DNA from: Escherichia coli
GTDB taxonomy: Bacteria; Pseudomonadota; Gammaproteobacteria; Enterobacterales; Enterobacteriaceae
Length of the DNA stretch: 64,000 nucleotides
Assembly (NCBI RefSeq): GCF_029227855.1
Contig: NZ_CP074356.1
Reading direction: 5' to 3' (one strand)
Below, in pieces: positions 12,308-34,317 of this stretch (position 1 is the first letter of the stretch; each line of letters opens with the position of its first letter). Below the pieces are notes generated by a model. It was not told the origin of the DNA and made no database searches. It saw nothing but the letters and a program-made list of their open reading frames with translations. A program made the position numbers and the translations under genes.

Positions 12308-14458
12308 TTAACGCCGCCGACGGCGTGGGGATTTCGTTTTTTCTTTCTTTTTAACTATACCTTCAGGGACTTCCGGTTGCTCTATCGGAAATACCGGTAA
12401 TGCATCCAGTAGCCGCTTGCCGTAGTTTTTGGTGAGCAAGCGTTTATCGTAAATCACCACTTCGCCCCAGCAACCGTGGCTTCGAATCAGTCGCCCAACC
12501 TGCTGAATCAGGTTAAACGAGGCGCTCGGCAGGCTTTGCACCTCAAACGGATAGCGGTTGAGGCTTTTCAGCCATTCCCCTTCGGTGATCACCACCGGGC
12601 TGTCGATGGGCGGAAAAGCGATTTTGTGGATATGCACCTGGCTGAGCAGATCACCTTTCAAATCAAGCCCTTCGGCAAATGACTGTAAGCCCACCAGCAC
12701 GCTGCGCTCACCGTTGGCGACGCGTTTGCGGTGCAGTTCAACTAAACGGTAACGCGGCTGATCGCCCTGCACCAGCAACATCAGACGTAAATCCGTCACA
12801 TAATCGAGAAAGCGCTGCATCGCCCGTCCGCTGGCAAACAGTACCAACATACCGAGATGTTTTTTGCTCTCCACCTGCTCACGGAAAAAGGCCGCCATTT
12901 CGGCAATATGCTGCTCTTCGTTGTCGAGGGAAGGCTCAACGCGCATCCGGGGAATAACAATTTTGCCCTGTTCGCAGTGGTTGAAGGGGGAATCCAGCGC
13001 CACAAAACGGTCGCCCGCTTTCTCTTTCAGACCACTCATCTCCTGCAAACGCGAAAAACTATTCAGCGAACGCAAGGTTGCGGAGGTGACAATAATGTGC
13101 GGAATACTGCGCCACAGCAGCCTTTCCAGCTGATCGCTGACACGTATCCCCACGCAGTGAAACCAGAGATGCAGTTGCCCTTCGCGCTCTTCCCGCGTCG
13201 CCCATTTGGTCACCGGCGCACCGGAAGATTGCGCCAGAGACGCCAGCCGCCAGAGTTTGCTTTGCGCCTCGAACATCCCCAACGCGCGGTTCATCTGCAA
13301 AATCAACCGATGCAGGCGTACAATGTCATGGCTGCCGGTTTTCTCACTTAAATCGTTAAGAAATAACTCCGCCAGACCACGCAGCATCTCGGTGAGTTTT
13401 GCCAGCCGCTGGCAGATCTCCAGCACTTCATCAGGCAGTTCGCCCATCGCAAAACGGTGCTCTGCCTCCTGCCCGGCAGGCATGTAGAGATTGAGAATGT
13501 TGTTTAACGAGGCGATAAGCTCATACAACTCTTCACAATGCGCATTCAAACGTTCAGGGATCGCCAGCGGTGGGATGGTCTTCGGGCGAAACTGCTCCGT
13601 GCAGGTAGCGACCAGTTTCGTGAACAAGTCCAGCTGTAGCCGATACCACGACGCGGTGATTTCGGCGCTCATCTCCAGCGCATCCCGCGCCACATCTGGC
13701 AGGTGATGACCTTCGTCCAGCACCAGCAGCAGATTTTTCGGGTCAGGCAGTACGGCTTCGCTTTCCATCGCCGCCATCACCAGCGCATGGTTTGCCACCA
13801 CCACTTCCGCTTCCTGAATCTCCCGACGAGCAACAAAAAACGGGCATTCACGATAGTAGTAACAGTTACGGTTGAGGCAGCTGGCTTTGTCGGTACTCAA
13901 ACGACGCCAGAGATCATCATCTATAGCGATATCCGTATGATCGCGCAGACCATCCCATTTATAAGTGTCGAGATCGCCCTTCAACTTTGCACAACGCTTT
14001 TGCTCTTCCTGATTGTTCGGCGTCAGCTCGTCGTCAAGAAACGCCAGCAGATCCTGTTGCGTGGGCTCAGTGCTGGCAAGCGCCGTCAGATTACGCGGGC
14101 AAACGTAGCGCCCACGCCCAAAAGCGGCAGTGAATTTAAGATCGGGAATGATCTTTTTCAGCAGTGGCAAATCTTTGCTGTAGATCTGATCCTGCAATGC
14201 TACGTTGGCGGTACTCACCACCAGCGTTTTTTGCTCTTCGCGGGCAATGGCGATACCGGGGATCAAATAGGAGAGCGTTTTCCCAACGCCGGTGGGGGCT
14301 TCAATCGCCAGATGCCGCCCTTCTTCTCCGGCCAGCGTTTTGGCGACGTCCGCAATCATCTGCCGCTGCGGCGCACGGGGAATAAAGTCGGGGATCTGTT
14401 CCTGAAGCGCCTTATACCAGGCGGCAATTTGCGCTTTAAGCGCGGCGGTTAATGCCAT
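12308..14458 (-). CDS. dinG: ATP-dependent DNA helicase DinG
   Basis: 716-aa ORF with DEAH motif (VLDEGHH) and Walker A (GVGKT); length matches DinG. Confidence 0.95.
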   Translation of the reverse strand: MALTAALKAQIAAWYKALQEQIPDFIPRAPQRQMIADVAKTLAGEEGRHLAIEAPTGVGKTLSYLIPGIAIAREEQKTLVVSTANVALQDQIYSKDLPLLKKIIPDLKFTAAFGRGRYVCPRNLTALASTEPTQQDLLAFLDDELTPNNQEEQKRCAKLKGDLDTYKWDGLRDHTDIAIDDDLWRRLSTDKASCLNRNCYYYRECPFFVARREIQEAEVVVANHALVMAAMESEAVLPDPKNLLLVLDEGHHLPDVARDALEMSAEITASWYRLQLDLFTKLVATCTEQFRPKTIPPLAIPERLNAHCEELYELIASLNNILNLYMPAGQEAEHRFAMGELPDEVLEICQRLAKLTEMLRGLAELFLNDLSEKTGSHDIVRLHRLILQMNRALGMFEAQSKLWRLASLAQSSGAPVTKWATREEREGQLHLWFHCVGIRVSDQLERLLWRSIPHIIVTSATLRSLNSFSRLQEMSGLKEKAGDRFVALDSPFNHCEQGKIVIPRMRVEPSLDNEEQHIAEMAAFFREQVESKKHLGMLVLFASGRAMQRFLDYVTDLRLMLLVQGDQPRYRLVELHRKRVANGERSVLVGLQSFAEGLDLKGDLLSQVHIHKIAFPPIDSPVVITEGEWLKSLNRYPFEVQSLPSASFNLIQQVGRLIRSHGCWGEVVIYDKRLLTKNYGKRLLDALPVFPIEQPEVPEGIVKKKEKTKSPRRRRR

Positions 14459-14472
14459 GAGAAAACCTGAAA

Positions 14473-14492
14473 TACTGTATAAACAGCCAATA
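14473..14492. promoter_or_regulatory. LexA (SOS) box of dinG
   Basis: tactgtataaacagccaata is the reverse complement of the known non-canonical dinG SOS box TATTGGCTGTTTATACAGTA, 15-34 bp upstream of the dinG ATG. Confidence 0.7.
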
Positions 14493-14628
14493 TTGTGGCA
14501 TTTTTCGGTTTTCAGGGGTAATGGTTTTTCTGTTTCTGGAAAGCGGCTCGCAATAACGTTTTCCGGATGTGAAGTTTTCTCGCGGCAGAAGAAACATCAT
14601 TGTGCAGCAAAAGACATTGTACATCAGC

Positions 14629-14910
14629 TTATTCCGCTGGCGGCCATTGCAGAGCGGTATGTAAAACACGCAGTACCGAGAGCGTATCGCCCTCCACTTG
14701 ATAGACAAGCACATAATGCGGCCTGACAACGGCTTCATGTGTACCAGCGACTCGTCCGGCCCGGTACATCTCCGGGCGTTCACAGGCCTGTTCCGCAATG
14801 GCTTCAAATTGATTATCAAGGGCTATTGCCGCTAGCGGATTATCTTTACTGATGTATTCCATGATTTGCTCCCTGTCAGACAGGGACATTGGCTTCCATT
14901 CCAGACGCAT
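14629..14910 (-). CDS. ParE/RelE-superfamily toxin-like protein (93 aa)
   Basis: MRLEW…IAEQACERPEMYRAGRVAGTHEAVVRPHYVLVYQVEGDTLSVLRVLH shows the ParE pattern seen in Caulobacter ParE1 (aligned by eye from memory); start overlaps the upstream gene stop as TAATG. Confidence 0.85.
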   Translation of the reverse strand: MRLEWKPMSLSDREQIMEYISKDNPLAAIALDNQFEAIAEQACERPEMYRAGRVAGTHEAVVRPHYVLVYQVEGDTLSVLRVLHTALQWPPAE

Positions 14911-15350
14911 TAATCCCCCTTCAGCAAGGCTTTTTTACGGGCAGCAAATAGACTTTTGGCCTCTTCATGAGAGAGTGCCGGGCGTGGATCGTCAATGGCG
15001 GCCTGCACCTGCTCTCGAAACCAGGCATCATACGCGGCAGCTTCATGAGCTCGTTTTAATGCCTCAGCCCTGTCTGGTCGGGTCGTTTTCTTCTGACCGT
15101 CCGGGTCGTAATTAGAGGCGTCGACTTCAAACCGGGCAATACCAACATCTTTCAGGTAGTTGACAACCGTTTCCAGCCGTTTGAACAGGCGGATTTGCCG
15201 ACTGCGTTGTGCTGCAAGAGGCCGTTCAGTGTGGCCGTATTTCACGGTCAACGACCAGCCTCCCTGGGTGCCAATAACGTGTGCTGCATCCACTACGCCA
15301 GATTCAACCAGTTTATGTAAGGTTGAGTGATCGATCGTTTCTGGTGCCAT
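14910..15350 (-). CDS. Putative cognate antitoxin / partner protein (146 aa) with unrecognised N-terminal region
   Basis: ORF with AAAGAGG RBS about 10 nt upstream, translationally coupled to the ParE-like gene; only one Met; C-terminal charged helical tail (DAWFREQVQAAIDDPRPALSHEEAKSLFAARKKAL); family not assigned. Confidence 0.6.
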   Translation of the reverse strand: MAPETIDHSTLHKLVESGVVDAAHVIGTQGGWSLTVKYGHTERPLAAQRSRQIRLFKRLETVVNYLKDVGIARFEVDASNYDPDGQKKTTRPDRAEALKRAHEAAAYDAWFREQVQAAIDDPRPALSHEEAKSLFAARKKALLKGD

Positions 15351-15377
15351 AATGCGCTAACCTCTTTGTATACAGCA

Positions 15378-15420
15378 TGCAATTTATAATTAAAGATAGA
15401 GCAATTAATAATAAATTGCA
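15378..15420. promoter_or_regulatory. Promoter/operator-like inverted repeats upstream of the toxin-antitoxin cassette
   Basis: tgcaatttat (15378-15387) and ataaattgca (15411-15420) are perfect 10-bp inverted repeats; an inner gcaatt-N7-aattgc palindrome lies in an AT-rich stretch with a TATAAAT-like -10 on the minus strand. Confidence 0.35.
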
Positions 15421-15506
15421 GCACCTTGATCGTAAATTGCCCAGGATAAAATTGCGGTAGAAAGAGACTTGTTGCGAAGATGCCGGGCATCGCCCGGCAT
15501 AAAAGA

Positions 15507-16871
15507 TTACTGCGCAGCGGCAGGTTTACGCGGACGGCGGCGGCGTTGTTGTTCGCCTGCCGGTTTGGCATCGCCAAGACGACGAGATGGTTTTTCTGCA
15601 GGCTTCGCGCTCGCAGATTTTGCGCCACCTTCAGCGCGGCGTGGTTGCTGTTGACCGCGACCACCACCTTGCCCACGACCGCCGCCGCCACGTTGCTGGC
15701 GACCGTTCTGGATTGGTTCGGCTTTGATTGACGGGTCCGGCTCATAGCCCGGAATCGCAATGCGCGGGATCTCTTTTTTCAGCAGTTTTTCGATATCACG
15801 CAGCAGTTTGTGTTCATCAACACACACCAGCGACAACGCTTCACCGGTAGCAGCCGCACGACCGGTACGCCCGATACGGTGAACATAATCTTCCGGTACG
15901 TTTGGCAGTTCATAGTTGACCACGTGCGGCAACTCTTCGATATCCAGACCGCGCGCAGCGATGTCAGTTGCCACTAGTACACGAATATCGCCCGATTTAA
16001 AATCAGCCAGCGCACGGGTACGCGCACCTTGCGATTTATTGCCGTGGATCGCCGCACTGCGGATGCCATCTTTATTGAGCTGTTCAGCCAGATGGTTAGC
16101 GCCATGTTTGGTACGGGTAAACACCAGCACCTGCTGCCAGTTCCCTTTCCCAATCATGTGCGACAACAATTCGCGTTTGCGTTTCTTATCAACAAAGTGA
16201 ACATGCTGGGTCACCTGATCAGACGCGGTATTGCGGCGTGCCACTTCGATTTCCAGCGGGTTGTGCAACAGTTTTTCCGCCAGAGCTTTAATATCGTCAG
16301 AGAAGGTCGCGGAGAACAACAGGTTCTGGCGCTTCGCAGGTAGTTTTGTTAACACGCGACGGATATCGTGGATAAAGCCCATGTCGAGCATGCGGTCAGC
16401 TTCATCGAGGACGAGGATTTCAACCTGATCCAGCTTCACCGCATTCTGATGTTCCAGGTCCAGCAGACGTCCCGGCGTTGCAACCAGCACATCAACGCCG
16501 CCGCGCAACTTCATCATCTGCGGGTTAATGCTGACACCGCCAAACACCACCAGCGAACGAATGTTCAGGTATTTGCTGTAATCACGGACGTTTTCGCCAA
16601 TCTGCGCCGCCAGTTCACGGGTCGGGGTAAGAATGAGCGCACGTACCGGACGACGCCCTTTGGCGTGCGGCTGGCGAGTGATCAGGTGTTGCAACAGCGG
16701 CAGCGTAAAGCCCGCTGTTTTGCCGGTGCCAGTCTGGGCGCTAGCCATCAGGTCGCGGCCTTCCAGCACCGCAGGGATCGCCTGCTGCTGAATAGGGGTG
16801 GGTTCACGGTAACCCTGCTCGGCAACGGCGCGCAGGATATCAGGGCTTAAACCCAAAGAATCGAAAGACAT
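15507..16871 (-). CDS. rhlE: ATP-dependent RNA helicase (DEAD-box)
   Basis: 454-aa ORF with DEAD motif (VLDEADRM), Q-motif, and a Gly/Arg-rich basic C-terminal tail; matches RhlE. Confidence 0.95.
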
Positions 16872-17064
16872 AACTACTCCGAACCGCCCCGACCGTTACC
16901 GGTGTAGTTTTCAGGGAGATACTGAAAAGGAAAATGACAAAAACCACAATGTCATGAGGGAGCGGAGTGTAGCAGTTTTTGTGACGCAGCGCATAAATTA
17001 TCCCTGTGACTGGCGTTGCTAAAATTCTTAGCCATACTGGACAACTCCCATATGGAGTCATAAT

Positions 17065-33739: not shown

Positions 33740-33813
33740 GAGTCGCTACCTGAAGGAGTTGGGCGGGCAGGTATGTAATTTTACTCGTCGTACTTAATTA
33801 TGCCAACAAATTA

Positions 33814-33833
33814 TACTGGATAAAAAAACAGTT
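33814..33833. promoter_or_regulatory. LexA (SOS) box of uvrB
   Basis: aactggataaaaaaacagtt (CTG-N10-CAG) in the uvrB promoter region. Confidence 0.65.
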
Positions 33834-34135
33834 CCTCACCATAATATTTCTGTTACAGCGTAAACTCCGCTGTCAATCATGAGCAAAATTTACTCTGTGG
33901 CGAGATAAAACTCCGGCCTTACCGGGTTATCCCCAAAGCAACGGCTTTTTTAACATTTGTCAAGATGAGTGATGACAGTTTTATGGCAAGAGATGCCTCT
34001 TCAGTGACTGCCATTGCAATTATCTAACCAGTTAAAAAATAAAAGATATTTCTTTGAGCCGTCTTTAACGCCAATTCGCGTGCAAGCCGCGTATTCTCTC
34101 GCTTGCCTCGTGTTTTCTAACTCTAATACACATGG

Positions 34136-34159
34136 TTATCCACAGGAATAGTGGATAAC
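34136..34159. promoter_or_regulatory. Pair of inverted DnaA boxes in the uvrB upstream region
   Basis: ttatccaca (34136-34144) and gtggataac (34151-34159) match the DnaA box consensus TTATNCACA in opposite orientations. Confidence 0.5.
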
Positions 34160-34317
34160 TGTCTGCAGCCCCTATCCCCCGCCGCCTGGGCAATTCCCAC
34201 ATTCATCGCATGATGCGGAAGTAAAATTTTTTTCGTGATTATTTTAGAATTTAATTGGTTAAATTGCAGTCAATCGAAGACGCGATCTCGCTCGCAATTT
34301 AACCAAATACAGGATGG

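Follow-up and report, generated by a model that had tools for sequence, protein, structure and literature searches.

What is the function of the inverted repeats that lie directly upstream of a small two-gene toxin–antitoxin (TA) cassette in Escherichia coli, and which protein would read them? Type II antitoxins commonly repress their own promoters via palindromes (PMC8630535, PMC8706911), and a preliminary description of this DNA had taken the repeats for a candidate autoregulatory operator. The whole stretch that was analysed, 64,000 nt in length, is referred to below as the window, in which the locus is organized as follows.

12308–14458, minus strand: dinG
14629–14910, minus strand: ParE-family toxin gene, 93 aa, its start overlapping the antitoxin stop codon
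14910–15350, minus strand: antitoxin gene, 146 aa, with a ParC-like region (residues 1–85), a linker and a PaaA2 segment (104–130)
15507–16871, minus strand: rhlE
14558–15478, no strand assigned: variable segment of 921 bp defined by comparison with K-12, comprising toxin, antitoxin and promoter/operator

Homology to K-12 breaks off at position 14557 and restarts at 15479, and ybiA together with REP sequences, which K-12 carries between dinG and rhlE, is replaced by the 921-bp TA segment. Of 5426 complete E. coli genomes, 324 have this segment, invariably as one chromosomal copy. Set against the K-12 locus, the cassette takes the exact place of ybiA (encoding an N-glycosidase) and the REP elements (1795–2500 of that locus), so that a given strain has one or the other. 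Neither repeats nor recombination sites could be recognised where the cassette joins the K-12-like flanks, and no dif-like 28-bp site (XerC/XerD) was found to bound the module within 13001–17000 of the window. The antitoxin and toxin genes share one base, indicating a bicistronic arrangement directly downstream of the repeats, and of the 80 related loci that were collected, 78 likewise have a gene for a ParE homologue behind that for the antitoxin. Within the 156-bp gap from the rhlE stop to the antitoxin start there is no plausible ORF for a regulator. In RefSeq the antitoxin is named either “hypothetical protein” or “antitoxin PaaA2 family protein”, and a PADLOC search for defence systems matched neither cassette protein.

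Inspection of the upstream region confirmed the perfect 10-bp inverted repeat of the preliminary description, TGCAATTTAT at 15378–15387 with its exact complement ATAAATTGCA at 15411–15420 across a 23-nt spacer, as well as the inner palindrome formed by GCAATT (15401–15406) and AATTGC (15414–15419) with a 7-nt spacer, and the AT-richness of the stretch (34% G+C over 15351–15478). The repeats had also been called nested; this does not hold, in that the outer right arm (15411–15420) includes the inner right arm (15414–15419), and the half-sites therefore number three, not four. Two further AAATTGC copies, at 15434–15440 and 15449–15455, had been absent from that description. Altogether, five copies of GCAATT/AATTGC fall within 80 nt, against a total of 58 for the window (0.12 per 128 nt), and the copies in the array are spaced by 22, 21 and 15 bp.

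Palindromes might simply be chance products of AT-rich intergenic DNA, and 19 perfect 10-nt inverted repeat pairs do occur in the 64-kb window, while the region itself has only 34% G+C. Chance was evaluated by 20,000 dinucleotide-preserving shuffles of the cassette-specific intergenic sequence (15351–15478, 128 nt). Perfect inverted repeats of 10 nt, with arms no more than 30 nt apart, appeared in 138 shuffles (0.7%; p ~0.007), GCAA-N11-TTGC arose in 216 (1.1%), and five or more half-sites were generated in 1 of 20,000 (0.005%; p ~5e-5). These values, together with a family-wide conservation at a fixed position that is described below, leave the chance reading with almost no credence, and we regard it as effectively refuted by the comparative data.

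The exact form GCAAT-N9-ATTGC occurs a single time in the 64-kb window, where one-mismatch matches were found at the chance rate and no further operator copies above it. Its half-site centres are ~15 bp apart, that is, ~1.4 helical turns, which is an unusual spacing for a simple dimer on one face of the DNA. Elsewhere in the window, the intergenic gap 33740–34317 contains a 12-bp perfect inverted repeat, TGGTTAAATTGC-N26-GCAATTTAACCA (34256–34305), that includes an AAATTGC heptamer as in the operator half-sites; its spacing is unlike that of the operator dyad, and the match is thus probably a coincidence. A Fur-box or other host-factor match was also considered for the array, and was judged by eye to be no better than chance.

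To find which part of the array is conserved, the antitoxin gene was compared with those of 80 related loci (81 including the window), which encode relatives of 50–99% identity and were drawn from one-genome-per-species contigs of Gamma- and Betaproteobacteria. This comparison defined the following element.

15401–15419, minus strand: core operator identified by family conservation, a 19-bp dyad GCAATTTATTATTAATTGC of the form GCAA-N11-TTGC, here GCAAT-N9-ATTGC

An exact GCAA-N11-TTGC was present within 150 nt upstream of the start codon in 47/80 related loci, a density of 47 sites per 12,000 nt of upstream sequence versus 9 per 242,744 nt elsewhere. With the window included, the dyad was exact in 48/81 loci and one base off in 16/81, so that 64/81 were within one mismatch, counts that overstate independence because the related loci are phylogenetically linked; among background 150-nt windows, 4/1106 had an exact site and 95/1106 a site one base off (9% within one mismatch). 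The other 17 of the 81 loci were without a good site. The 64 family sites comprised 41 distinct 19-mers and, save three outliers at −139 to −149, were located at −56 to −77 from the ATG. A dyad-symmetric information profile (TTGCAAtcTacTATtgaTTGCgtA..aT) with weak flanks was obtained, in which a −10-like TAnnnT directly follows the dyad. A Rhizobium locus, from the Alphaproteobacteria, also has the dyad with one mismatch. Among close relatives (87–100% identical proteins), TGCAATTTATTATTAATyGC and TATAAATTGCA were unchanged, while the flanks and the upstream copies varied. The conserved operator is accordingly the inner palindrome, and the 10-bp “outer” repeat is made up of a core arm plus a lineage-specific extra half-site.

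The position of this dyad relative to promoter elements was then considered, and the following hexamer assignments on the gene strand are relevant.

15416–15421, minus strand: predicted −35-like hexamer CTGCAA (mostly TTGCAA in the family), coinciding with an operator arm
15393–15398, minus strand: predicted −10-like hexamer TATCTT, 17 nt after CTGCAA and directly downstream of the other arm
15436–15431 and 15413–15408, minus strand: candidate alternative promoter TTTACG-17-TATTAT
15382–15388, minus strand: candidate alternative −10, TATAAA(T)

Across the family, the −35-like position matches TTGACA at four or more of six bases in 33 of 48 distinct upstream contexts, and a hexamer of the form xAxxxT starts 1–3 nt past the core in 40/48 of these contexts versus 13.5% of background 9-mers. 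The window itself matches at 3/6 bases in the −35-like hexamer and at 4/6 in TATCTT, and the family-conserved promoter is therefore a weak one here. Three candidate promoters are thus present in the window, all of them overlapping the repeat array. The TATAAAT-like −10 noticed earlier does exist, as ATTTATA at 15382–15388 on the plus strand and hence TATAAAT on the gene strand; it is one of the three candidates and is not the family-conserved one. With a conserved −35-like hexamer on one side and a −10-like one on the other, the dyad takes up the spacer of the conserved promoter, which, as far as these predicted elements locate the promoter, is the classic position for a repressor. With the sequence, spacing and position of the dyad conserved and its flanks diverged, the earlier proposal of an autoregulatory operator overlapping the TA promoter is strongly supported at the level of sequence comparison.

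The same elements raise the question of whether the conserved sequence is a promoter alone, with TTGCAA as its −35 and an AT-rich spacer, or else a site for a host factor, with the cassette protein unbound. TTGCAA does resemble TTGACA, and the AT-rich centre of the dyad contains TATTAT/TATAAT-like hexamers. Nevertheless, the right arm TTGC is conserved equally to the left arm and at a fixed spacing of 11 nt, and it is one base off the register required for an extended −10. Moreover, the site goes with the ParC-like gene in three classes of Proteobacteria (Alpha, Beta and Gamma) and onto plasmids, so that no single host factor would be common to all. We therefore hold this explanation to be unlikely, and further observations that bear on it are given below with the N-terminal domain.

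Another explanation is that the outer 10-bp repeat acts in RNA, as an mRNA-leader hairpin that influences translation or transcript stability, or as an element behind rhlE that resembles a terminator. For the 59-nt stretch, the gene strand gave a predicted folding energy of −13.8 kcal/mol (z-score −2.4). In addition, the hairpin at 15480–15500 behind rhlE has no downstream U-run in the rhlE sense, and read-through transcripts could carry the repeat. The arms, however, are conserved in sequence and not in pairing, most of the family is without the outer arm, and the hairpin of the retained core amounts to only −4.5 kcal/mol. If the family-conserved promoter is used, half of the hairpin would lie upstream of the transcription start. 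A search of 14400–15600 against Rfam, at E of 1 or below, returned zero matches. A role in RNA is thus very improbable. As to the hairpin after rhlE (ATGCCGGGC/GCCCGGCAT at 15480–15500), it is common to the window and K-12, and its T-run is on the side expected of a terminator that serves the opposite strand (ybiA in K-12); since it is followed by CTTCGC in the rhlE sense, transcription may run on from rhlE into the promoter region of the cassette.

Beyond the core dyad, the array contains additional half-sites, of which the following were distinguished.

15378–15387, minus strand: third half-site, ATAAATTGCA on the gene strand (the outer left arm of the preliminary description), 22 bp downstream of the core right arm
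15411–15420, minus strand: outer right arm, TGCAATTTAT on the gene strand, including the promoter-proximal core arm and overlapping the −35-like hexamer
15434–15440, minus strand: additional GCAATTT in direct orientation, 21 bp upstream of the core arm
15449–15455, minus strand: second extra direct copy of GCAATTT, forming a direct-repeat family with the copy at 15434–15440

Read in gene orientation, the outer right arm and the core left arm represent the same half-site. The third half-site is located two helical turns (22 bp) from the core right arm, near the predicted transcription start, and repeats the right half of the core directly at this distance (ATTATTAATTGC vs ATTATAAATTGC). A TTGC at this offset (+38/+39, counting from where the core starts) was found in Escherichia, Erwinia, Pantoea, Serratia, Xenorhabdus and Photorhabdus, as well as in a Klebsiella plasmid, Salmonella and Chromobacterium, and in no other loci of the family. 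In the chromosome of E. coli GF43, a 22-bp tandem duplication (ATTATTAATTGCGCTATCTTTA) was observed inside the operator, aligned to 15393–15414 of the window, which supplies one more right half-site and doubles the −10-like box. Based on the 22-bp direct repeat and this further duplication, the third half-site probably arose by duplication, and that of the window looks like an older product of a GF43-type event. Of the two upstream copies, that at 15434–15440 is not conserved: E. coli GF43, E. whittamii (whose protein is 99% identical) and a relative with 87% identity all carry mutations in it, and it is probably dispensable or lineage-specific; the copy at 15449–15455 is kept in E. coli and E. 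whittamii and not in the 87% relative. Both extra copies are probably accessory.

We then turned to the cassette proteins. The toxin matched ParE_toxin (PF05016) with E=1e-13, and among solved structures it is closest to ParE2 of E. coli O157:H7 (5cw7, E=1.7e-6). Antitoxin residues 104–130 matched PaaA2 (PF21217, E=2e-10), and the PaaA2 structures 3zbe (E=2e-4) and 5cw7 align to residues 83–139 only. The N-terminal part (residues 6–83) aligned near full length to the ParC model NF041544 with 33 bits (E=3.5e-8), a score far below the equivalog cut-off of 95, and so it is taken as a related domain and not as a ParC orthologue; the stand-alone relatives from Aeromonas and Xanthomonas described below scored 36–40 bits, likewise below this cut-off. 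In the precomputed annotation of near-identical proteins in a public collection, PF28031 “ParC-like” is assigned to the whole family. A match in Pseudomonas juntendi from a look-up of the IncP-6 ParC was uninformative. A search with the N-domain through 1.84 billion representative proteins matched 888 clusters (50% identity), in which the ParC-like domain is almost always N-terminal and protein lengths cluster at ~80–120 aa and 145–170 aa; a PaaA2 tail was detectable in 23 of the top 150 ParC-like matches. The literature that was searched contains no paper on this antitoxin architecture, and describes neither a function nor DNA binding for ParC-like proteins.

A Pfam search of the antitoxin gave no ribbon-helix-helix (RHH), HTH, AbrB or Phd matches. 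The N-domain was modelled with a pLDDT of 91.7 and a pTM of 0.79 as alpha-beta-beta-beta-alpha-beta (H8–17, E20–29, E31–38, E41–46, H59–69, E75–77), a predicted topology that is not the beta-alpha-alpha of RHH proteins. Searching with the N-domain fold, we found a resemblance to eL38 and no match to a known DNA-binding family, and a model of the full-length antitoxin gave eL38/FtsH matches as did the N-domain alone; sequence searches, with a single sequence or a profile, revealed no solved structure homologous to the N-domain. Any DNA binding by it would therefore involve a fold other than the known antitoxin DNA-binding folds. A fold that matches no known DNA binder is the main weakness of the operator explanation, and it favours the view, considered above, that the cassette protein leaves the site unbound.

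Evidence that links the dyad to this domain was provided by relatives in which the domain stands alone. Five Aeromonas plasmids encode ParC-like proteins of 80–89 aa without a PaaA2 tail, and each of the five genes has an exact GCAA-N11-TTGC, with a variable centre, at −67 or −73. This indicates that the dyad travels with the N-domain and not with the PaaA2/ParE part. These stand-alone genes were observed directly upstream of parA-parG, relB-relE, ccdA-ccdB or a gene for an NYN-domain protein, an arrangement that suggests a portable small regulator. On Xanthomonas citri pXAC64 (1805–2856 of the locus), a 149-aa protein combines a ParC-like N-domain with a basic low-complexity tail, and its gene overlaps the start of a gene for an M48 family metalloprotease, so that the N-domain there has a different partner.

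The occurrence next to partition genes might suggest another function for binding by the ParC-like domain, namely that it occupies the array for activation or to build a centromere- or iteron-like higher-order complex rather than for plain autorepression. Such a complex would suit an array of five copies of the same sequence spaced by 22, 21 and 15 bp, the Aeromonas plasmid on which a stand-alone gene directly precedes parA-parG, and the name “partition-associated” of the nearest NCBIfam family; antitoxins may also have second DNA targets, as described for PrpA, which binds plasmid iterons (PMC7848731). It is less readily reconciled with a family-wide conservation that is limited to the core dyad, the extra copies being lineage-specific, or with the location of the dyad between −35- and −10-like elements, which is that of a repressor site. 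Furthermore, the E. coli cassette is chromosomal and has no ParA nearby, and the Aeromonas par locus encodes a separate ParG, the expected centromere binder. We give this possibility a low probability, and autorepression remains the preferred reading.

Co-variation between protein and DNA likewise links the dyad to the N-domain. At loci whose N-domain has the loop AAQRSRQ, a GCAA-type site was found in 64/71 and a CCC-type site in 0/71, whereas at loci with the loop AAKRG- (positions 48–52 changed) the GCAA-type site was found in 0/10 and CCCRTTT-N7-AAAYGGG in 8/10, at the same position relative to the −10; this co-variation rests on essentially one clade split and is confounded by phylogeny. 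In Fluviibacter, where the loop is RRGSVR, a dyad GTCACGG..CCTGTGAC is present at the operator position. In the KRG clade as in Fluviibacter, neither arm has changed without the other, which argues against a promoter alone or a host-factor site. Among relatives with a shortened basic loop, GTCAT..ATGAC was observed as one of the variant dyads at the same promoter position. Read from sequences as it is, the co-variation of loop and dyad is suggestive of the N-domain as the reader.

During this comparison, dif-like sites (GGTGCGCATAA-N6-8-TTATGTTAAAT) were observed to precede the module in the same orientation in at least 12 loci (~−128 to −100), when up to four and up to two mismatches were allowed in the two arms; shuffled loci gave two matches. 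On the Aeromonas plasmids, dif-like sites lie to either side of the stand-alone ParC-like gene, inverted relative to each other, an arrangement that resembles the “dif modules” of Acinetobacter, which the abstract of PMC13141974 calls unique to that genus. An integron attC site was also considered, as many distant loci share a “..cgggcGTTATGTcaa” motif ~110 nt upstream, and was rejected; neither an R'' (RYYYAAC) partner nor an attC-like fold was found for the motif, which is consistent instead with the XerD arm of a dif-like site.

Taken together, the conservation and position of the dyad, its co-variation with the loop and its linkage to the N-domain make autorepression by the antitoxin N-domain well supported by comparison, and we consider it probable that the repeats serve a two-gene ParE TA cassette as its operator and that this cassette is autorepressed through a dimer of the ParC-like domain. 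The antitoxin would comprise a PaaA2-type toxin-binding tail and the 85-aa ParC-like N-domain, a dimer of which would recognise the dyad GCAAT-N9-ATTGC at 15401–15419. As the predicted −35-like hexamer is one arm of the dyad and the −10-like hexamer lies just past the other, the dyad would fill the spacer, and its occupation would exclude RNA polymerase and render the operon self-repressed. In Enterobacterales, the duplicated third half-site at 15378–15387 probably adds a cooperative or alternative contact, and the ParE toxin, bound to the antitoxin tail, would modulate occupancy by analogy with other type II systems. In this scheme we infer direct binding, the stoichiometry of the dimer, the sign of regulation, the promoter used and the effect of the toxin.

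Compared with known systems, the cassette shares its PaaA2-family tail and its toxin, nearest to ParE2, with paaR2-paaA2-parE2 of prophage CP-933P in O157:H7. In that operon, the HTH regulator PaaR2 exerts control via 18-bp GTTTAGTAA-type palindromes, and PaaA2, of 63–71 aa, has no DNA-binding domain (PMC8630535); the question of whether an ancestor of PaaA2 had such a domain that was later lost has been raised (PMC8630535). The present cassette differs in having no third gene, an antitoxin with an additional 85-aa ParC-like domain, and the operator GCAAT-N9-ATTGC in place of PaaR2 palindromes. Antitoxins of the RHH type, such as ParD, CopA_SO and PrpA, resemble it in joining an N-terminal DNA reader (putative here) to a C-terminal toxin-neutralising tail, and in being bicistronic with a ParE toxin behind a promoter with a palindromic operator (predicted here); CopA_SO, for instance, binds GTANTAC-N3-GTANTAC (PMC8706911). 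Unlike them, the N-domain modelled here is not RHH, with a predicted alpha-beta3-alpha-beta, eL38-like fold, and its half-sites, 15 bp apart centre to centre, are counted as a further difference. PsA/PsT of P. syringae and PrpA were also examined as relatives and set aside as unrelated, their antitoxins being of the CopG/RHH type. The closest likeness of the N-domain is to NF041544/PF28031, as it aligns to the ParC model and has stand-alone relatives upstream of parA, but in contrast to the ParC family (NF041544) it is fused here to an antitoxin tail.

Autorepression through promoter palindromes is textbook for type II TA systems, and the finding is in this respect a routine, well-supported annotation. 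The unusual part is the putative reader, a ParC-like domain not described as such in the searched literature. For this broader proposal we see about even chances: the ParC-like domain (PF28031) would represent a class of DNA-binding domains not characterised before, sequence-specific and of eL38-like alpha/beta fold, which reads GCAAT-N9-ATTGC via its basic loop AAQRSRQxR, and would be both the missing DNA-binding half of PaaA2-type antitoxins and a portable stand-alone autoregulator beside partition and TA modules. A precise operator is thereby linked to a domain of ~900 clusters (50% identity) in Proteobacteria that has no known function or solved structure. The natural specificity variants, the QRS loop with GCAA and the KRG loop with CCC, are suited to swaps. 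If the ParC-like domain does bind the dyad, it would add a new DNA-binding fold to the antitoxin repertoire, and would explain how PaaA2-type antitoxins, famed for having no DNA-binding domain, can form self-contained two-gene modules. It would bear as well on the DNA-binding domain that the ancestor of O157:H7 PaaA2 may have lost (PMC8630535), and would suggest that the “ParC” proteins beside plasmid par operons are transcriptional regulators.
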